DNA of 57,160 nt from a virus, in the IMG/VR virus record IMGVR_UViG_3300037493_005727, positions 133,091 to 190,250 of that record; one strand, given 5' to 3'. Within the stretch, counting starts at the first letter, position 1; each line of letters opens with the position of its first letter. Below are positions 30,036-53,017 of the stretch, piece by piece. The translations under genes and the position numbers were made by a program. Below the pieces are notes generated by a model, which saw only the letters and a list, made by a program, of their open reading frames with translations, did not search any database and was not told the DNA's origin.

Positions 30036-30776
30036 TCATTCGATTGGGATCAACAGCTTCTCACGATACCCCGAATTCAGTTGGGTTGGGTACCCGAACG
30101 GGTTGCAGACGATCCGCGTACCCGAAAGCTGATAATCGAACGAATCATGTGTGTGGCCGTGTACCCAGAGCGCCGGACGCTTGTCAAGGATGAGTTGATC
30201 CGTCTCGGACACAAAGAACGGGTTCGTCGCCGATCCCTTGTACCGGGGGGACACGCTCTTCAAGGTAGGGAGGTAGTGGGTCAGCACTACGTCGCCCTCC
30301 TGCAAATTTTTCTTCAAGAAGTCGTTGAACTTACGGTTCTCCTGGACCAGCCAGGGATGGAAGTCAACGATCTGAGTGAAGTCGTTCATGCGGGTGCTGG
30401 CATACTCGGACATCGGGCTCCACTGAGGCACCCACATCGGACCTCCGAGGAACCGCCGCCCTTTGATGGTGACCAGCTGGTTGTCGAGCATGACGACGTT
30501 GGGAAGCCCAGTGGTGGCGCTTCGAAGAGTTGAGATCGCCTCCGCAGGCTTGAGCTTCCACAGCTCGTGGTTCCCAGGAACGTACAGGATCTGCGGGTAT
30601 TTCGCGGCCAGCTTCTTGAAGACAATCTTGGCCTGGTCGAGGAAGCGGGCCGACATGATGTCTCCCGCCAACAGCAGGATGTCAACGCCCGCGGGGTCCA
30701 TCGAATCAATGAACGCAGCTCCGTTGTCCCTGTGGAGCTCGAAGTGCAGATCGGACGCAACTTGGAGTGTCGGCAT
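30036..30776 (-). CDS. calcineurin-like metallophosphoesterase (246 aa)
   Basis: Motifs in order: DLHFE, GDIM..D, GNHE and HGHTH. Confidence 0.75.
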   Translation of the reverse strand: MPTLQVASDLHFELHRDNGAAFIDSMDPAGVDILLLAGDIMSARFLDQAKIVFKKLAAKYPQILYVPGNHELWKLKPAEAISTLRSATTGLPNVVMLDNQLVTIKGRRFLGGPMWVPQWSPMSEYASTRMNDFTQIVDFHPWLVQENRKFNDFLKKNLQEGDVVLTHYLPTLKSVSPRYKGSATNPFFVSETDQLILDKRPALWVHGHTHDSFDYQLSGTRIVCNPFGYPTQLNSGYREKLLIPIE

Positions 30777-30997: not shown

Positions 30998-31253
30998 CGT
31001 AGTTCCTCGCGTTTCGTGGCCCCGCCCACAGGACACTGCCGGGCCCGTAGGCCATGCGGTACTCCTGGAGAAGGTACGCTGCTTCTTTTTCATTCTCCGC
31101 GGTGTCGACTACTTCCGGCGGATTTCCGGGGTACTTGAACCAGATGCTGATCGTCATTTTTCCCTCACTGAGTTGAATCTTTGGAAGCTCTTCCTGGTGG
31201 TTCGACAAAGCTCGGCTTTGTGGAACCTCCTGGAAGATACGTACCGCTGTCAC
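30954..31253 (-). CDS. hypothetical protein (99 aa)
   Basis: The ORF overlaps the downstream start by about 45 nt. Confidence 0.45.
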   Translation of the reverse strand: MTAVRIFQEVPQSRALSNHQEELPKIQLSEGKMTISIWFKYPGNPPEVVDTAENEKEAAYLLQEYRMAYGPGSVLWAGPRNARNYDGSEKKKDSDLQLR

Positions 31254-31429
31254 CGCTACGGTGACCGTCCTAACAAACGGGTCTGAGGGTTACAGCATCA
31301 GCATGATCCGCATCAGCCGGTAGTAATCTCGCTGCGCCTCTACGTCTGCGGTCTCGATCCACTTCTCGAACGCAGGGAAGCGTTTACCCGTCACAGCTTC
31401 TACCTCTGAGAACTGGGTCCGCAGGTGCT

Positions 31430-31714
31430 TTACAGCCTCGGGCCGTGGAGTCTCCGGGACCGGCTTTTCATCAGACTGCTTTCCTTCTTCAGGAGCAGCA
31501 GCGCGTTCATCACGTCTTGGTACGCCTTCTTCTCCGGCGTGGTAACGAAGATCGAGCGGGAGTTGTACCCGGTAAATTCTTCGAGGAACCTCTCCGTGCT
31601 CTGATGGAGGTACACGCTCCACTTCTGGAGCTCGTCCACTGTCTGATGCAGCTTCCATGTGCGCTTGCTCCCTGCGTCGAGCTTCGACACTTTCACTTCG
31701 GCGGATGGTTTCAT
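31430..31714 (-). CDS. hypothetical protein (94 aa); a possible frameshift junction with the downstream reading frame
   Basis: The N-terminal 75 aa look natural. The last 18 aa look out of frame, while the alternative frame continues naturally to 31290. Confidence 0.4.
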   Translation of the reverse strand: MKPSAEVKVSKLDAGSKRTWKLHQTVDELQKWSVYLHQSTERFLEEFTGYNSRSIFVTTPEKKAYQDVMNALLLLKKESSLMKSRSRRLHGPRL

Positions 31715-31716
31715 GG

Positions 31717-31977
31717 CTACACCTTGGTTGTTCGTTTGAAGATGACATCCCCCCCGATCCAGACCTTGAGTTCCAGCAGGCCGTCTCGGTGGAGTCCTTC
31801 TACAGTGATGTCGTCGTGGTGGATTGAGCCCTCGGCTCTCTGCAGCACCTGGCAGCGAAACCCCCCGGAGCGGCTCCTGGGGCCCGTTCCGACTTTCGCT
31901 TTCCGCCCATCCACGCTGATGTTGAGCCAGAAGTTCCTAACGTTTCGGGGCATCGGCGGTGTCCTCCAAGTAAGCAT
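31717..31977 (-). CDS. hypothetical protein (86 aa)
   Basis: ORF. Confidence 0.4.
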   Translation of the reverse strand: MLTWRTPPMPRNVRNFWLNISVDGRKAKVGTGPRSRSGGFRCQVLQRAEGSIHHDDITVEGLHRDGLLELKVWIGGDVIFKRTTKV

Positions 31978-33843: not shown

Positions 33844-34018
33844 ATGGGATCTCCTTCTTCGGTTCATTCTGCTGGTTGAGCTTCTCGAGGTTCGCGTTGA
33901 GCTTCTTGAGCTCACGAACCAGTTCAGGCATCGTGTACTCGAAGAACGTCCGGCCCATGGCCGTCTGGAAGAATTGCACCTCAGCCACGGGGCCATCTCC
34001 TTGAATACTTCGCAACAT
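33812..34018 (-). CDS. hypothetical protein (about 68 aa)
   Basis: Track ORF 33812..34174 trimmed to an internal Met. The start is uncertain. Confidence 0.3.
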   Translation of the reverse strand: MLRSIQGDGPVAEVQFFQTAMGRTFFEYTMPELVRELKKLNANLEKLNQQNEPKKEIPYVEPRDDGGR

Positions 34019-34286
34019 CTCCGTCAGTGACGTCAACAGTCTCTCCTTCGTCGTTGTAGCGGCTGATGAAGAAGGGTCCACGGATGACATCCCGGATCTC
34101 CGGCACGGGCCGATTGAACGGCAAGCCGGTGAGCTTTCCCTCCTCGTTGCAGATGAGGCCGACTCCGTCCTCAAGGGTCACGTTCTCGATGTACCCTCCA
34201 ACCAGGTCTTGCATTGGTTGCAGCCCCGCTGCGATGTCCATCACCTTCGGATCTCCGCCAACAGGGAACAGCAGTACTTTGGGCAT
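33981..34286 (-). CDS. hypothetical protein (101 aa)
   Basis: ORF. Confidence 0.5.
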   Translation of the reverse strand: MPKVLLFPVGGDPKVMDIAAGLQPMQDLVGGYIENVTLEDGVGLICNEEGKLTGLPFNRPVPEIRDVIRGPFFISRYNDEGETVDVTDGDVAKYSRRWPRG

Positions 34287-34385
34287 GGCTTCTCCTTTGT
34301 TACGCGTGGACTACTTTGGGGATGTCCGGCCCGGACATCCGTCGGGAAAACCCTCGAAGCACTGGCTCGGCCAGTACAAACAGCT

Positions 34386-34769
34386 GCCTCCACTACGGAG
34401 GCGTCGATCTAAAAATCGAATCTAGTTCACGCTTGAATCACTGTGTTCTGCACGATCCAGTCCTGGAGCTCGCACCCTCGGATGAGCTCGAGGAGAACTC
34501 AGAATTTGGATGTTGCCTGGTGACTCCAATCTGATCTGATCAGATTGGCCACAGGCCATCTTAAAGATGTCTCCACTACGGAGACGCTGGTTACTCCCAG
34601 TTTGCTGATTGGCGTGTCTACTTTGTTCGGTGAGCCGCCACTGGCGGCCTGTGCTCGACTACTCGCGATTACTTTGATTCACGGTCTCCGCCAGGCGCCG
34701 GCGGACGACATCTCCGGCTCGGGCAGTTTTGGCCTAGGGCCAACAAGAAGAAGTCGCCACTACGGCGAC
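34386..34769. repeat. three-unit hairpin array with covarying 6-bp stems, an identical ACTAC loop and 183/184-bp spacing (34386-34402, 34569-34585, 34753-34769)
   Basis: The three units are GCCTCC-ACTAC-GGAGGC, GTCTCC-ACTAC-GGAGAC and GTCGCC-ACTAC-GGCGAC. Compensatory changes occur at two stem positions. They lie in a 500-bp non-coding gap. Confidence 0.6.
34526..34548. promoter_or_regulatory. perfect 11-bp inverted repeat around a central T, GATC-rich (CCAATCTGATC-T-GATCAGATTGG)
   Basis: Direct reading of the sequence. It lies between hairpin units 1 and 2 of the array. Confidence 0.5.
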
Positions 34770-34783
34770 TAGCACTCTCTAAT

Positions 34784-35062
34784 CTAATCGCGATCTGTAA
34801 AATTGTACCCCGCGAGATACGACTCACGTAGGTAGAGAACGTAGAGACTCCGAGCTTCTGCGCCAGGGACTTTCAGGGTCACGGCGAGCTCGAGGGGGGT
34901 CGCTTGCTCCCGCTCCGTCGCCCGGTGCTCGTGCCCCAACTTGACTGCCTTACCCATCATACGGGCAAAAGAGTCGAAGTCAGTTTTCGGGAGCTTCTTC
35001 GGCTTGGGCGGCATGCCCTTCTTTGTATACCAGTCGAGGCAAAAGAAACAGCGCCCGTTCAT
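34784..35062 (-). CDS. hypothetical basic protein (92 aa)
   Basis: ORF. Confidence 0.45.
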   Translation of the reverse strand: MNGRCFFCLDWYTKKGMPPKPKKLPKTDFDSFARMMGKAVKLGHEHRATEREQATPLELAVTLKVPGAEARSLYVLYLRESYLAGYNFTDRD

Positions 35063-35102
35063 GGGCGCTGCTCTTCTTCCTCGCGGTGGAGGGTTCTACC
35101 TA

Positions 35103-35345
35103 CTACGCCGCCTTCTTGTGCTTCGACAGCTTGGCGGCGGGGCTGCGGGCCTGGGTCTTCTTGGCCTTCGCCTTCTTCTTGGTGTCGGCGCCCTTGACCT
35201 CCACCGCCACCTTCTCCTGCTTGCGGGGGCCGACCGCCTTTTCACGCGTGTATTCGTACGCGTCGGAGCCGAGGGCAACGCCGAGGAGGACGCCCGCGCC
35301 AGTGGCAACAGTGACCGCCGCGGTCTTCAGGAAAGTTCCGAGCAT
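35103..35345 (-). CDS. small membrane protein with a Lys-rich tail (80 aa)
   Basis: It has an N-terminal hydrophobic helix (LKTAAVTVATGAGVLLGVALG) and then a KKKAKAKK tail. Confidence 0.5.
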   Translation of the reverse strand: MLGTFLKTAAVTVATGAGVLLGVALGSDAYEYTREKAVGPRKQEKVAVEVKGADTKKKAKAKKTQARSPAAKLSKHKKAA

Positions 35346-35638: not shown

Positions 35639-35932
35639 GTGATCCGCAGAGACCTACCCCGCGGTACCCAAGCTGCCCAACTGATTCACGCCGCTGGCCA
35701 CTCATCGCCAGGCACGAATCTCCCCTCAGGAACCTACGCCATCGCCCTGTCCTGCCAAGATGAGGCTGAACTGCGTTCGCTCTCTGAGCGCCTGGAAGTC
35801 GCTGGCATTCCACACCACCGAATCAACGAGCCAGACGAGCCCTACAACGGGCAACTCATGGCCATCGGGCTGCCGCCCGCCTACAAGTCCACCTACCGGA
35901 GGTACATCTCGAATTTGCCTTTGATCAAATAG
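35639..35932 (+). CDS. PTH2-family peptidyl-tRNA hydrolase (97 aa, GTG start)
   Basis: IRRDLPRGTQAAQLIHAA matches the PTH2 N-terminal motif (V-R-x-D-L-x-M-G-K-G-K-x-A-A-Q-x-x-H-A-A). The C-terminal part ...SCQDEAELRSL...AGIP...INEPD...MAIGLPP parallels KAPDEE...L...GL...IxDAG...LGIGP. Confidence 0.55.
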   Translation: MIRRDLPRGTQAAQLIHAAGHSSPGTNLPSGTYAIALSCQDEAELRSLSERLEVAGIPHHRINEPDEPYNGQLMAIGLPPAYKSTYRRYISNLPLIK

Positions 35933-35993
35933 TCTTATGGGGCGAGCGGTAGTATGGCGCTTCGGGAGGTTCGACTCCTCCCCGCCCCACCAT

Positions 35994-36068
35994 GCTTCGT
36001 TACCTCAGTTGGTAGAGGGCCCAGAGTAATGACCTGGGAAGTCGGGGGTTCGAATCCCCCACGAGGCT
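35994..36068 (+). tRNA. tRNA-like gene with canonical acceptor, D and T arms but an apparent 9-nt anticodon loop (AGTAATGAC); identity unresolved
   Basis: Acceptor GCTTCGT/ACGAGGC, D arm CCTC-AGTTGGTA-GAGG and T arm GGGGG-TTCGAAT-CCCCC. The anticodon stem CCCAG/CTGGG encloses 9 nt. Confidence 0.5.
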
Positions 36069-36071
36069 CTT

Positions 36072-36145
36072 GCTCCCCTAGCTCAGTTGGTAGAGCGTCG
36101 GCTGATTTAAGCCGCGGGTCCCTGGTTCGATTCCAGGGGGGAGCG
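36072..36145 (+). tRNA. tRNA-like gene (Lys/Ile-like body) with an apparent 8-nt anticodon loop TGATTTAA; identity unresolved
   Basis: Acceptor GCTCCCC/GGGGAGC, D arm GCTC-AGTTGGTA-GAGC and T arm CCTGG-TTCGATT-CCAGG. The anticodon stem CGGC/GCCG encloses 8 nt. Confidence 0.5.
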
Positions 36146-36829
36146 CTACTTCTTGAGAAGATGGGCTGCGATCAGCCCCGCCACAGACCCGAGGATTCCT
36201 GGGGCGGCTTTACGCAGGACCTCGCCTTTGTTGACGAAGCTCTGGTCAAGGGCCTTCGTCCCAAAGCCCCCAGGCGGCTTGAGCTTGAGCGCCGTTGTTT
36301 CAGTGGGCTTCAGAGCGGGACCTTTGGCGGCCAAGAACTGCTGCTTGTTGGCTTCGTCGAGTCCGTGGAGATCCCACAGCGCTTTCGAGGCAGGGCCGTG
36401 CGCGACACCAGGCCGCCGCATGTGCAGAAGGGCGTCGAACTGGTCCGGGTCTTGATTGACCAGGGTGTCGTAGCGGTCTGAGACGTGCCCCGGAGGAACA
36501 CCGCCAAGGCCCATCCGAAGATCTGCGTCGTAGTGCTGCATTCCGAGATGCCGAGACAGCTCCGACGCCATCTCGCTCTTCCCCGTCCTCGGCAGGCCGC
36601 CGATCCCAATGCGCGCCGTCGCGGGGTCTAAGTGTTTCAACAGGGGCGCGATTTTAGCCGCGTCCGAGATGATCTGTGGATGGATCTTCGCACCTCCGCC
36701 CTGTTGGAGCAGTTCGTTACGCAGGTCCCTGTCCAGTAGCATCTGAAGAGCGATTCCCCCGAGACCTCCAGCAACGGCTCCGAGTCCGTAGTGAAAGGCG
36801 GCAGCGGTCTTTCCTGCGAAATAGAACAT
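36146..36829 (-). CDS. P-loop NTPase/kinase-like protein (227 aa) with hydrophobic termini
   Basis: Walker A motif GIGGLPRTGKSE. It has a GAGGTG RBS. Its stop abuts the 3' end of the second tRNA-like gene, and it lies downstream of the leftward tRNA cluster. Confidence 0.55.
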   Translation of the reverse strand: MFYFAGKTAAAFHYGLGAVAGGLGGIALQMLLDRDLRNELLQQGGGAKIHPQIISDAAKIAPLLKHLDPATARIGIGGLPRTGKSEMASELSRHLGMQHYDADLRMGLGGVPPGHVSDRYDTLVNQDPDQFDALLHMRRPGVAHGPASKALWDLHGLDEANKQQFLAAKGPALKPTETTALKLKPPGGFGTKALDQSFVNKGEVLRKAAPGILGSVAGLIAAHLLKK

Positions 36830-36907
36830 GACACCTCAAGTTTAGGCCAGAGGCTAAAAATGAGCTGGGCATACTCGCCGTTGCTCTTCTCTTCTTCTTA
36901 TACCGCA

Positions 36908-36978
36908 CTGGGGCACGTGGACTCGAACCACGATTCTCAGAGTCAAAGTCTGATGTCCTGCCATTGGACGATGCCCCA
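36908..36978 (-). tRNA. tRNA-Gln (anticodon UUG)
   Basis: Cloverleaf: acceptor TGGGGCA/TGCCCCA with U1-A72, anticodon arm TCAGA-CTTTGAC-TCTGA and T loop TTCGAGT. Confidence 0.7.
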
Positions 36979-37060
36979 TCGGAACGGGGGGACTCGAACC
37001 CCCACGCCTTGCGGCACTAGATCCTAAGTCTAGCGCGGCTACCAGTTACGCCACGTTCCG
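36979..37060 (-). tRNA. tRNA-Leu (anticodon UAG), class II with a long variable arm
   Basis: Acceptor CGGAACG/CGTTCCG, anticodon arm CTAGA-CTTAGGA-TCTAG and variable arm TGCCGCAAGGCGT. It resembles E. coli tRNA-Leu architecture. Confidence 0.7.
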
Positions 37061-37064
37061 CTTG

Positions 37065-37137
<73 letters not shown>

Positions 37138-41794: not shown

Positions 41795-42694
41795 TTAGGG
41801 TTTCTGGGACTGCGAGAGGGACGTCTGATCAGGGGACAAGAGCGCCTGCACGCAGGCGTTCGCTTCTACGACCTTGAGATACTCCTCTGCCAACGCAGGA
41901 TTGTTCTGCGTTCGATCTGGGTGGTAAAGCCTGGCGAGACGACGAAACTGCGTCTTGATGTTCGCGCGAACCTTCGGCGTGAACTCCCCGTTCTTCGGAG
42001 GGTCCACGTTGAGGACACGAAGAGCCGCATAGAGCCTCTTCGTTCTCGAAGCGTCCGAAAGCTTCTCCGGATCTGCCACTCGAGCGCGTGCGATGATGCT
42101 GCGCCACGTTTCAGTCAACGCCCGAAGATCCGCGCGACCAACGGCGCGGATGTTATAGGCGGCGAATTCTGGGACGCCGACCAGCATCTGGTCGAACAAG
42201 CGTTCCACGGCTGCGAAGAACTCAGTGGACTGCCCTCTGGCAGACAAAGGTTCTTCTGGCTCCTTTTCCGGTGTCCTTGCCCTCGTTTTGCTCGTAGGAG
42301 CATTTTCGGAGGGGCGCTTCTTGTCCAGCGTTCCCGCCAGATACGCCTGGATAGTCGCTTCTACTTTCTCGGGCGTTGGTTGCTGTTTGTCGTCCCGCGA
42401 CCGAGCGATGATGATTCCGCTCGACCGGAGCGTAACCTTCTTAGCTTCGAGCGCCGCCCAGATAGGCTCCGCCGCAGCGCCCACCCGGTGCAGGATCGCC
42501 CGATCCATGATGTGTCGGGGTCCTGCGTTCTCAGAGCCGGGGGGCAACTGAGCGGTGATCCAGTAGCCGCAGTAGTTTTTGCGGGCTCCTGGAGTGTCTG
42601 GAGTGAACGCGCGCATCTCGTGTTCAACCTGAGCGCGCTCCTTTTCACTGGTACTGGCAACCCACGCCAGAACCAGCTCTGCGATCGATCTCAT
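41795..42694 (-). CDS. J-domain (DnaJ-like) protein (299 aa)
   Basis: Its C-terminus IKTQFRRLARLYHPDRTQNNPALAEEYLKVVEANA matches the J-domain helix II/III with the HPD motif. Confidence 0.55.
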   Translation of the reverse strand: MRSIAELVLAWVASTSEKERAQVEHEMRAFTPDTPGARKNYCGYWITAQLPPGSENAGPRHIMDRAILHRVGAAAEPIWAALEAKKVTLRSSGIIIARSRDDKQQPTPEKVEATIQAYLAGTLDKKRPSENAPTSKTRARTPEKEPEEPLSARGQSTEFFAAVERLFDQMLVGVPEFAAYNIRAVGRADLRALTETWRSIIARARVADPEKLSDASRTKRLYAALRVLNVDPPKNGEFTPKVRANIKTQFRRLARLYHPDRTQNNPALAEEYLKVVEANACVQALLSPDQTSLSQSQKP

Positions 42695-45102: not shown

Positions 45103-45627
45103 TTACGAGGGCAACTGGTACCGGGACGTTTCAGGGTCCCAGAGCAGCAGCTCGTGATCCCACCAGGGCATCATCCCCTTGGTGCCCTCGTCGAGGGCGG
45201 CGGCCATGCGGTCCACCCTGACCTGGGGGACCCCGTGGGTGTTGCGCGGACCGGCGATGGCCGGGTCGATGCGGAGGGTCATGATGACCACCTCCGCCCC
45301 GAACGCCTGCCCGACCGCCACGTAGGGGGCGATCTCAGCCACCGACGTGGACGTGTTGTCCACCACGATGACCGGCTCGGGGACGGGGTTACGGACCCCG
45401 GAGATCTTGGCCAGCTCGCGCTGGGCATACCCGTCCTGCAGGTGCTCGATGACCGAGAGCAGGCACGCCCCGTGAGCCGCCGGGAGCTTGGCGGGGTTGA
45501 AGACGTACTTCTCCCCTTCCATCATCCCGTCGTCCGCCGACGCGATGAGGTCAGCCTTGGGGAGCTCCTTCCGGGCGAAGGTGCTCTTCCCGCTGCCGGG
45601 GATGCCTCGAAGAATGATAAGGCGCAT
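45103..45627 (-). CDS. polynucleotide-kinase-like P-loop kinase (T4 Pnk kinase-domain-like, 174 aa)
   Basis: MRLIILRGIPGSGKSTFARKE plus a downstream VVDNTSTS segment. It parallels the T4 Pnk kinase domain (IILTIGCPGSGKSTWARE...ISDTNL). No phosphatase domain is present. Confidence 0.5.
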   Translation of the reverse strand: MRLIILRGIPGSGKSTFARKELPKADLIASADDGMMEGEKYVFNPAKLPAAHGACLLSVIEHLQDGYAQRELAKISGVRNPVPEPVIVVDNTSTSVAEIAPYVAVGQAFGAEVVIMTLRIDPAIAGPRNTHGVPQVRVDRMAAALDEGTKGMMPWWDHELLLWDPETSRYQLPS

Positions 45628-45711
45628 GGGTGGTCCTTTCTCGGCTTTCACCGAAGTGAGACGCAGTGCCAATAACTAGCCACCTCCGGCTCCCATGCAG
45701 GAGCTTGCGTC

Positions 45712-51229: not shown

Positions 51230-53017
51230 GTGGCTGTTCGGCTGCCCCTCGACGGTTCAGTTGTAGGGTACTGGGGCTTCGACGAGGCCCTAGAGACCGA
51301 TGCTGCCCGAGACGCGACGGCGAACGCCTTACACCTGACGGTCACTAGCGCAGCGTCTGCTACGCTTGGACGCGTTGGCGGCGCACGCGGGATGAATGGG
51401 TCTTCCTCATTCGCCTCGGTCGCGAACGCGGCGCTTCGGCTTACTGGCGACCTCGCCATCATCGGCTGGTTCAAACTGAATTCGGTCAACACTTCTGGAT
51501 CGTTTCTACGCTGCTTCGTGTCCTGCGCGGGCCCCACAAATGGGGACGGCGTGCTGTACGCCCTCTCGGTCAAGAGCAACGGCGCGATTGAGTACAGGCA
51601 CACGGCTTCCGCAGGAGAAGTGCTGGTCACTACAGCGACTGGAACGGTCAAGACCGCGCAGTTCTACTCGATAGCCGTACGGCGAGTAGCCAACGGGCCA
51701 AACCAAGATGTAGAGATCTATCTCGATAATCGCTTGGTGGCGAATAGCGCTGTTACGGTGAACGGGTCCCCCGTTTCAATGCCCGTTCCGCCGCCCGCGG
51801 CTAACGCCTCCGCCGTCTTCAGCGTGGGCCGTCTGCAGCGCGTCGCTGACTCGGCGTTTTGGGATGGGCTTGTTGACGAGATTTCCGTGCACAGCGTTGC
51901 GCGGGCCTACCAACCGTATTTGATCGCGGCGTATTACCAAGCCGCCCTACGCTCCGGGACTACCCAGCTTACTGCCACGGACAACGTCGTCGCGGTTTCC
52001 TCCTACGAGATGGGCTCTGGTGTTCGATGGTGGTGCGTAGAGCGAGATCGTGACTTGTACGTAGTGAAAGAGAGCCCCTTCGGTCAGTTCGGTTCTGAAA
52101 CTCGTTTGACTACTCCCGGTGGTGGCAACTCCTCCAACACTGGGCGTCCCGAGCTAGTCTACGACGCCGCGACCGATACCTTGTACGTGTTCTTCTTCGC
52201 AGGGAATCGGATCTACAAGCTAACCGCTAGCAGTACGGATGACCCTGCGACCATCAACATGCCGTTCACCGCAGATACAGGCGGCATCATCAAGTCGCTT
52301 GAAAACGTAGATGGAGGTCGCGTAGGAGAGGGTTCTGGGCAGAGAGATCCTCGCCCCGATGACGACCTCGTCTACGTCAACCGGCAACCCGTAAAGATCG
52401 GTTTTACGGACCCAGCTCTGAACTACGTCGGTGAAGGATCTGGTGACGTTCTTACGTTCACGCGGGGTTCGCCGAGTGCCCCGTCAATCGCCTTTGTTGA
52501 GCGCCCTTCGCCCGATGGGTTTGGTGTGTTTGTCGGTCCGAAGAACTCCCAAGAGACCGGCTACATTGTCTATCGCCTCGACGGGGGCATAGCCACTGTG
52601 CTTGGGACTCCGACGCTCCCATACCCCGGAGCGACCGCCTACTTCATGCCTGTCGCCCCCCGAGTACTGGGACGGGGGTACTTCGCTCGCGCCCTAGACG
52701 CGTCTGGTCGCCAGACTGACGTGGTCACTACTACCATCTACGACAACTTCAACTCGGGAGTCCTGGTTCCCGGTGGAGCACGGTGGGATTTTGGACGAGA
52801 CGGCGACCTTTCGGACTACGGGCTAGTTGGTGAGGGGTCAGCGCAGCGCCATCCCAGGGACGACGATTTTGTGTACGTCAACAGAGCGCCAGTGAAGTTT
52901 TCTACGCAGGACCCTGATACAAACTTGCTGGGTGAAGGCGCGGGCGGCCCCGGCGGTAGGGGTAACGCAGATGGCGCTGGTTCGTGGACCCAGAGCGGCA
53001 CGACGAGGATCATATGA
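51230..53017 (+). CDS. tail-fibre-like protein with an internal duplication (595 aa, GTG start)
   Basis: Repeated segment GEGSGQRDPRPDDDLVYVNRQPVK...DP matches GEGSAQRHPRDDDFVYVNRAPVK...DP. The composition is beta-rich. Confidence 0.55.
   Translation: MAVRLPLDGSVVGYWGFDEALETDAARDATANALHLTVTSAASATLGRVGGARGMNGSSSFASVANAALRLTGDLAIIGWFKLNSVNTSGSFLRCFVSCAGPTNGDGVLYALSVKSNGAIEYRHTASAGEVLVTTATGTVKTAQFYSIAVRRVANGPNQDVEIYLDNRLVANSAVTVNGSPVSMPVPPPAANASAVFSVGRLQRVADSAFWDGLVDEISVHSVARAYQPYLIAAYYQAALRSGTTQLTATDNVVAVSSYEMGSGVRWWCVERDRDLYVVKESPFGQFGSETRLTTPGGGNSSNTGRPELVYDAATDTLYVFFFAGNRIYKLTASSTDDPATINMPFTADTGGIIKSLENVDGGRVGEGSGQRDPRPDDDLVYVNRQPVKIGFTDPALNYVGEGSGDVLTFTRGSPSAPSIAFVERPSPDGFGVFVGPKNSQETGYIVYRLDGGIATVLGTPTLPYPGATAYFMPVAPRVLGRGYFARALDASGRQTDVVTTTIYDNFNSGVLVPGGARWDFGRDGDLSDYGLVGEGSAQRHPRDDDFVYVNRAPVKFSTQDPDTNLLGEGAGGPGGRGNADGAGSWTQSGTTRII

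Follow-up and report, generated by a model that had tools for sequence, protein, structure and literature searches.

Covarying hairpins in a gene-free gap of an uncultured phage: tandem ~130-nt domains of a probable new structured RNA family

What keeps half a kilobase of gene-free, repeatedly folded sequence in a compact phage genome? The question is raised by a 57,160-nucleotide (nt) stretch of viral DNA (IMG/VR record IMGVR_UViG_3300037493_005727, positions 133,091 to 190,250; hereafter the window), in which a gap of 497 nt (34287-34783) separates two genes of the minus strand and carries three short hairpins that share a loop and differ in their stems. A first-pass annotation, made from the letters of this DNA, had reported a non-coding gap of about 500 bp with hairpins at 34386, 34569 and 34753 and identical ACTAC loops, and the sequence bears out both statements. 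The gap element is probably a new structured RNA family of modular build. The best explanation, to which somewhat less than an even chance is given, is that it comprises three tandem paralogous RNA domains of ~130 nt, produced from the minus strand, with the hairpins acting as recognised 3'-end elements.

33981-34286, minus strand: DUF3846 gene, one flank of the gap
34784-35062, minus strand: open reading frame (ORF) of 92 amino acids (aa), the other flank and the upstream gene of the array
34386-34402, minus strand: signature hairpin H1, GCCUCC-GUAGU-GGAGGC (plus strand GCCTCC-ACTAC-GGAGGC), with a U-rich tail 3'
34569-34585, minus strand: signature hairpin H2, GUCUCC-GUAGU-GGAGAC (plus strand GTCTCC-ACTAC-GGAGAC)
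34753-34769, minus strand: signature hairpin H3, GUCGCC-GUAGU-GGCGAC (plus strand GTCGCC-ACTAC-GGCGAC), followed by UCUUCUUGUU

Ten distinct orthologous gaps were gathered from JGI, ENA and Logan assemblies, by contig look-ups from homologues of the 92-aa ORF and, in the case of L212, by a pattern scan of metagenomes. All ten retain three hairpins, and the equivalent interval (465-515 nt) is without gene calls in every relative. Comparison of the orthologues reveals no reading frame conserved across the gap: open stretches vary in extent and frame, and the only peptide segments in common are translations of the hairpins and of a palindrome described below. This supports the reading of the region as non-coding. 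A micro-ORF terminating at the UAG of the hairpin loop was considered and rejected, no consistent in-frame start having been seen in the part scanned.

The exact sequence CCACTACGG occurs three times in the 57 kb, counting both strands, and all three copies lie inside the gap, against ~0.4 expected (2 x 57160 / 4^9). The hairpins are spaced 183 and 184 nt apart from start to start. The 183-bp periodicity remarked on in the first-pass annotation therefore holds in the window; across orthologues the spacing ranges from 140 to 191 nt, so that the period is simply the length of the unit, with no constraint of its own. Many gut-phage contigs (L002, L003, L005 and ~30 others) also carry two copies of CCACTACGG exactly 184 nt apart, without flanking stems; these look like conserved coding sequence, and the match in spacing is a coincidence.

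Stem variation is compensatory at each hairpin. At H3, orthologous stems on the minus strand read GUCGCC, GUCACC, AUCACC, GCCGCC, GCCCCC and GCCUUC with matching 3' arms, so that three of the six pairs have changed on both sides and a fourth on one. One pair of H1 is C-G in seven orthologues, U.G in one and U-A in two, and the next is U-A in nine and U.G in one; H2 shows one compensatory C-G to U-A change (in L234) and a closing pair that is G.U in 4/10 and G-C in 6/10. When 50 distinct hairpin copies from all loci, including those introduced below, are aligned, only a single cell of the six stem pairs is unpaired. Two C-G pairs are invariant, and the other four covary (GC 46/AU 4; UA 33/CG 16/AU 1; UA 26/AU 12/CG 4/GC 4/UG 2/GU 1; CG 38/GC 7/UA 4/UG 1). 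The covariation score is 0.456 versus 0.177 for shuffled alignments, with none of 500 shuffles reaching 0.456, and sliding the 3' partner as a control lowers pairing from 89% to 35-60%. Compensation at positions 2 and 4 of the stem, first noticed within the window, is thus confirmed and extended by homologous phage regions, and the hairpins appear, as had been proposed, to be selected for pairing rather than for sequence or coding.

The apex behaves differently from the stem. Among the 50 copies the loop is GUAGU or GUAGC, rarely GUAUC or GUAGA, and its first and last bases pair in 49 (G.U 34, G-C 15), which leaves an apex, C-G[UAG]Y-G on the minus strand, that is nearly fixed. H3 reaches 8 bp when its A-U and G.U closing pair are counted. 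Because the stems differ within one genome and the changes are symmetric, they argue for base pairing and not for a dimeric protein that reads half-sites in duplex DNA. A fixed apex on a variable stem is the design of a specifically recognised stem-loop, and in this respect the early suggestion of a protein-recognised hairpin stands. The hairpin is not free-standing, however: it is one arm of a ~130-nt multi-helix domain, of which the gap holds three tandem paralogues.

34302-34435, minus strand: domain 1, fold z = -5.0 (minimum free energy), consensus fold from ten orthologues, 139 bits with covariance model R1
34320-34340, minus strand: P0, long hairpin of domain 1, perfect palindrome GGAUGUCCGG-G-CCGGACAUCC
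34497-34611, minus strand: domain 2, R1 25.5 bits at full model length, E 0.002, fold z = -4.1
34526-34548, no strand assigned: 11+11 palindrome CCAATCTGATC-T-GATCAGATTGG, perfect inverted repeat with arms 34526-34536 and 34538-34548
34661-34796, minus strand: domain 3, R1 47.3 bits, E 2.6e-8

In layout, a closing helix surrounds a small hairpin, then the signature hairpin, one with a triloop and finally a long one, and the repeat unit is such a domain plus a linker of ~50 nt. In nearly all of 52 modules the small hairpin (C) lies directly 5' of the signature hairpin and the triloop hairpin (A) 7-25 nt downstream on the minus strand. The closing helix of domain 1, GCGUG-ACUA / UAGU-CACGC (34423-34432 with 34304-34313), does not vary in the orthologue set and encloses C1 (34404-34419), H1, A1 (34361-34375), a small variable arm and P0, in which G.U stands at two pairs on the minus strand in most orthologues (GU 7/10, UG 4/10). 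Domain 2 holds C2 (34587-34600), H2, A2 (34546-34558), which covaries across orthologues (CG 5, AU 4, GC 1), and the 11+11 palindrome as its long hairpin. Domain 3 is closed by GCGAUUA / UAAUCGC (34785-34791 with 34665-34671), a helix that overlaps the UAG codon ending the 92-aa ORF; within it stand H3, A3 (34729-34743) and a GC-rich long hairpin. This helix covaries at two pairs in L230 and, read by eye from a row out of alignment, at one pair in L231. Outside the signature hairpin, covariation is found in A1 and A2, in the small C hairpins and in the helix that closes domain 3.

The 11+11 palindrome is the perfect inverted repeat that had been described, with two GATC sites (34533-36 and 34538-41) and not three. 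Orthologues retain its sequence, L220 with a single compensatory change; at the corresponding place in the first unit of a second array, described below, stand hairpins of unrelated sequence without a GATC motif. Within the gap only the segment between domains 1 and 2 (34436-34520) evolves fast: orthologues differ there by indels and share little identity, yet each genome keeps a GAGCTC-containing inverted repeat. Kissing between a CUA triloop of hairpin A and the UAG of the signature hairpin was entertained and dropped, as the A loops vary (CGA, UGU, UUC, CUA).

Paralogy of the domains is supported by R1, which was built solely from the ten domain-1 orthologues. Besides domains 2 and 3 it recovers units of the second array at full length in L076 (27 bits, E 8e-4) and L183 (22.6 bits, E 0.008), so that the repeat unit is taken to be the ~130-nt domain; at orthologues of a third, solitary site it gives weak full-length matches (17-18 bits, E about 0.1). 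The second array lies in relatives between a DnaQ-like exonuclease gene and a convergent large-terminase gene and has three, four or five units depending on the genome. The structured length is ~500 nt in the window array and ~800-1000 nt in the second array.

L086, 1380-2000: second array
L076, 3040-3860: second array
L039, 3480-4075: second array
L183, 3405-3800: second array
Window 31249-31265, minus strand: solitary signature hairpin, GUCACC-GUAGC-GGUGAC, followed by a CGA-triloop hairpin

Orthologues of the solitary site carry the compensated stems GUCGCC, GUCCCC or GCCUCC. Copy number varies there too: in L223 two hairpins stand 128 nt apart (6011 and 6139), the first with a GUAUC loop and an A.C mismatch. 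Between the terminase stop and the first unit of the second array, GGTGACTCC(T) occurs in three copies at ~60-nt spacing, each followed by a hairpin (L086 2050-2180, minus strand of the locus); one copy also stands before the GATC palindrome (window 34520-34528) and is not kept in orthologues of the window array.

Position is the third regularity. The first hairpin begins 15 nt past the stop codon of the 92-aa ORF in the window array (H3), 24 nt past the stop of the ORF at 31290-31748 (minus strand) at the solitary site, and, over the three loci in several genomes, 15, 24 or 35-45 nt past the stop of a co-directional gene. A simple terminator scan calls H1 and H3 terminator-like on the minus strand (GC-rich stem, loop of 3-8 nt, U tract within 0-2 nt), and U tracts follow both in 9/10 orthologues; none follows H2 in any of the ten (0/10), nor the solitary copy.

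From these features we infer that the functional strand is probably the minus strand, which is sense for both flanking genes. The first hairpin follows a co-directional stop at all three loci, and the window array and the solitary copy lie within a block of genes all on this (GUAGY) strand. Read on it, the non-Watson-Crick stem cells are G.U in four cases versus A.C in one, the apex pair toggles between G.U and G-C, and the U tracts stand in nine of ten orthologues. The element would then probably have a stem of 7-8 bp that ends in a G.U or G-C pair under a UAG triloop, and not the ACUAC loop read in the first-pass annotation. RNA is also more plausible than DNA, because closing helices that span ~120 nt need a single-stranded molecule and the phage genome is double-stranded DNA.

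Several observations weigh against this assignment. Over those helices that are predicted on both strands, G.U favours the sense strand by only 8 to 4; in the second array, where the alignment is poorer, the balance is reversed, 15 to 10. A mirror-image model scores the paralogues within 1.5-5 bits of the sense model, so that unbiased strand tests favour the sense strand weakly. On the ACTAC strand many copies would gain a seventh pair, U.G. Two of the long hairpins are palindromes up to one central base, and selection for a hairpin does not by itself explain this. Consistent U tracts were not found in the second array, no binding protein or nuclease partner has been identified so far, and transcription, strand and RNA ends are all points that we infer.

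On the explanation preferred here, the gap would be transcribed with its flanking genes on the minus strand, and the transcript would fold into three tandem ~130-nt multi-helix junction domains. The signature hairpin would be specifically recognised and would form or protect RNA 3' ends, a role suggested by the fixed apex, the freely varying stem and the position just past stop codons. H1 and H3 probably act in addition as intrinsic terminators through their U tracts, whereas H2 and the solitary copy, which have none, would need a protein or an RNase; as these two do not look like terminators, the hairpin class presumably does more than terminate. The product may be one or more stable, highly structured RNAs, released by cutting or termination at the hairpins, or else long structured untranslated regions. 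Because the domains between the hairpins are conserved and one array has no downstream gene, either product would fit better than a leader regulating a downstream gene, which the array does not resemble.

A bolder version, rather unlikely on present evidence, holds that the arrays represent an undescribed class of large modular phage RNA, with three to five domains marked by invariant nucleotides at the junction (CAAAG) and the apex (C-G-UAG-Y-G), whose role goes beyond transcription punctuation; such an RNA would work alone or together with a dedicated protein partner, by processing itself, by serving as a scaffold or cage, or by decoying a host factor. The nearest relatives in kind are GOLLD and ROOL, large, heavily structured, phage-encoded RNAs that are supported by covariation, often lie near tRNA islands and have an open function (PMC12286853). 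The present element is likewise large, structured, supported by covariation and non-coding, with tRNA genes 1.2-2.3 kb away (35994-37137). It differs in consisting of 3-5 tandem paralogous ~130-nt domains where GOLLD and ROOL have one non-repetitive fold, and it is known from sequence alone. A search of Rfam, including GOLLD, ROOL, HEARO, self-cleaving ribozymes and riboswitches, gave no match in 34150-34950 at E <= 10, and the same threshold applied to the second array in L076 returned only a chance snoRNA match of 12.9 bits.

The alternative that survives best, though quite unlikely, is that the hairpins are ordinary intrinsic terminators that have been duplicated, separated by decaying remnants of gene cassettes from which a CAAAG(U/G)AG resembling a ribosome-binding site is left over ~40 nt before each. 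H1 and H3 would suit this: they have a GC-rich stem of 7-8 bp, a short loop and a sense-strand U tract after or between genes, and the hairpins come after stop codons. The motifs CAAAGTAGAC and GAACAAAGAGGA also resemble the real ribosome-binding site of the DUF3846 gene, AACAAAGGAGA. However, a terminator needs no fixed apex, and the U tract is missing at H2 in all ten orthologues and at the solitary copy. Nor is the sequence between the hairpins decaying: it holds conserved blocks, covarying helices, a closing helix and a paralogous domain over its full length, in which the hairpins are embedded. A clear terminator nearby, at 35046-35073, is of another kind, with an 11-bp stem. Exact copies of CAAAGTAGWC are confined to the array; CAAAGTAG and GAACAAAGARGA were tried as a genome-wide promoter or ribosome-binding motif and discarded on that ground and because GAACAAAGARGA is not enriched.

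It is decidedly improbable that the element works as DNA, through extruded or single-stranded hairpins bound by a phage protein, as promoters of the N4 type or as priming or origin signals. The model for such a design is phage N4, whose three early promoters (P1-P3) are small hairpins with a 3-nt loop and stems that mix conserved bases with variable ones constrained only to pair (PMC4496689). The window array resembles it in copy number and, if G.T closes the loop, in its small hairpin, 3-nt loop and mixture of stem bases; moreover, G.U and A.C counts are near-symmetric between strands, as expected if both strands or DNA matter, and two arms are exact palindromes to the centre. The N4 promoters, however, are DNA hairpins upstream of early genes near one genome end and are used by a virion RNA polymerase of ~3500 aa. 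No such polymerase is apparent in the window, where the longest ORF has 931 aa and 30 ORFs scanned against Pfam contain no RNA polymerase domain. The copies here follow stop codons or fill a convergent gap with nothing downstream to transcribe, the loop is TAG/CTA and not the purine loop of N4, and each hairpin sits within a 130-nt domain whose ~120-nt-spanning closing helices are implausible in duplex DNA.

The first-pass annotation had also likened the array to origin iterons or packaging signals, which finds no support. Spacing is variable (140-191 nt) and without helical phasing, the kilobase containing the gap has 56% G+C and no AT-rich stretch that could serve for unwinding, the cumulative GC skew has no inflection, the compensatory changes are symmetric, and no initiator gene is recognisable among the scanned neighbours. 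Packaging sites of the P1 pac type are clusters of GATC-containing hexamers that flank a cleavage site beside terminase genes; here there are only two GATC sites, the window array is not beside a recognised terminase gene, and the corresponding arm of the terminase-proximal array has no GATC.

Transcription of the plus (ACTAC) strand, antisense to the flanking genes, is very unlikely. It would yield small RNAs in tandem that carry a CU-rich motif of anti-Shine-Dalgarno type, UCUUCUUUGUUC; this motif is conserved in the second array, whose ACTAC strand is sense for the terminase gene. On the plus strand RNAalifold gives slightly better energies in 4-sequence alignments of both arrays, and the seventh U.G pair is possible there; with ten orthologues the sense strand folds slightly better (-80.7 vs -76.9 kcal/mol). 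Such RNAs would need promoters of their own inside a one-way gene block, and a scan for sigma-70-type promoters finds none in the gap. The intermediates of stem change would be A.C mismatches on the plus strand, and hairpins read on that strand bear no consistent relation to gene ends.

Little remains of the lambdoid boxB/nut analogy, by which an N-like phage protein would bind the hairpins for antitermination. A short RNA hairpin with a variable stem and a fixed pentaloop would suit a small phage protein, and the sense-strand hairpins do lie upstream of the DUF3846 operon beside terminator-like hairpins. The boxB hairpin has a 5-bp stem and a GNRA-like pentaloop (GAAAA, GAAGA or GACAA), whereas the loop here is a UAG triloop closed by G.U or G-C, and the sheared G.A pair of GNRA-like loops is out of reach for GUAGY. 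Lambdoid phages have one site for each early operon, placed between its promoter and the first terminator, with boxA a few bases upstream in the RNA and an arginine-rich N-like protein to go with it. Copy number and position differ here, the copies coming right after stop codons and numbering 3-5 in a convergent gap without a downstream operon. Matches to boxA (CGCUCUUUA-like) number 104 in the window against 130 expected by chance, and no hairpin has one with <=1 mismatch at its side. A search of the neighbourhood identified no N-like protein, and the 75-aa form of the neighbouring protein has no significant fold match. CRISPR repeat hairpins and their mimics in phages may bear some resemblance too. 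The type I-F repeat stem-loop is CUGCC-GUAUA-GGCAG, and the likeness consists of regular spacing, a G-U-A-rich pentaloop and agreement at 7/9 positions between CCGUAGUGG and CCGUAUAGG; here the stems vary between copies, the intervals of ~167 nt share homology and so are not spacers, and cas genes are absent.

Barely tenable is the idea that the units are a small non-autonomous mobile element or its targets, spread to three sites downstream of genes after the REP/RAYT or IS200/IS605 model: one module does occur at three loci in varying copy number (second array 3, 4 or 5 units, solitary site one or two hairpins) and GTAG is the conserved REP tetranucleotide, but REP elements have GTAG at the 5' foot of their imperfect palindrome and come with a RAYT gene, whereas here it sits in the loop, no transposase or RAYT-like gene occurs in the parts examined and no transposase-like domain among the scanned neighbours, and unit order and identity were kept while the neighbouring protein diverged to 60-90% identity, which points to old, stable arrays and not to recent spread.

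On viral contigs of 187 kb and 188.5 kb the 92-aa protein has a homologue of 71% identity and the DUF3846 protein one of 87-89%, and both contigs carry the same three-hairpin gap between these genes; the window is thus a fragment of a ~188-kb uncultured phage type. No nucleotide similarity to GenBank phages was found, the terminase of the relatives is <=30% identical to that of any cultured phage, and few of the scanned window proteins match known families. Among them, a 299-aa ORF (41795-42694) has a C-terminal DnaJ (J-domain) match and a 595-aa ORF (51230-53017) a concanavalin/laminin-G-like domain; most other scanned ORFs have no family match, which places the phage far from described ones. 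Pattern scans of viral contigs gave mostly chance or coding hits, only five loci being genuine, and three hits in genome collections were set aside as probable chance palindromes, two of them in apparently coding sequence.

The array appears to travel with its upstream gene, since in L231 and L232 the downstream gene is other than DUF3846 and the array still stands beside the upstream one. Protein searches returned 23 homologues of the 92-aa ORF, mostly ~75 aa long and starting at an internal Met, so that its true start is probably at 35014. For the same reason, a strong 11-bp hairpin with a U tract at 35046-35073 (minus strand), whose loop holds the annotated ATG of the 92-aa ORF, is probably the terminator of the upstream gene at 35103-35345. 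An AlphaFold2 model of the 75-aa protein is all-helical (pLDDT 85); weak helix-turn-helix-like resemblances among its fold matches are not used as evidence.

Genes for tRNA and RNA handling are abundant near the array (regions 35639-37137, 30036-30776 and 45103-45672). A scan of the whole window at Rfam gathering thresholds returns only five tRNAs. These five genes lie on both strands, and the one at 36072-36146 is given an abnormal two-base anticodon by ARAGORN. The same neighbourhood encodes a PTH2-like peptidyl-tRNA hydrolase, two P-loop kinase-like ORFs (AAA_18 and AAA_33) and a calcineurin-like phosphoesterase.

Coordinates, a strand hypothesis, a consensus and a covariance model now define the element for direct testing, and the hairpin apex offers a handle for finding a partner protein or nuclease. 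For the phage, the arrays mean that a compact genome spends 0.5 kb here, and in relatives a further 0.8-1 kb elsewhere, on non-coding sequence whose fold has been preserved through compensatory mutations in a lineage of ~188-kb uncultured phages. Were the hairpins a DNA signal, hairpin recognition in the manner of N4 would be extended to a phage group unrelated to it. If the element is RNA, it would add a new and unusually modular family to the short list of large structured phage RNAs to which GOLLD and ROOL belong.

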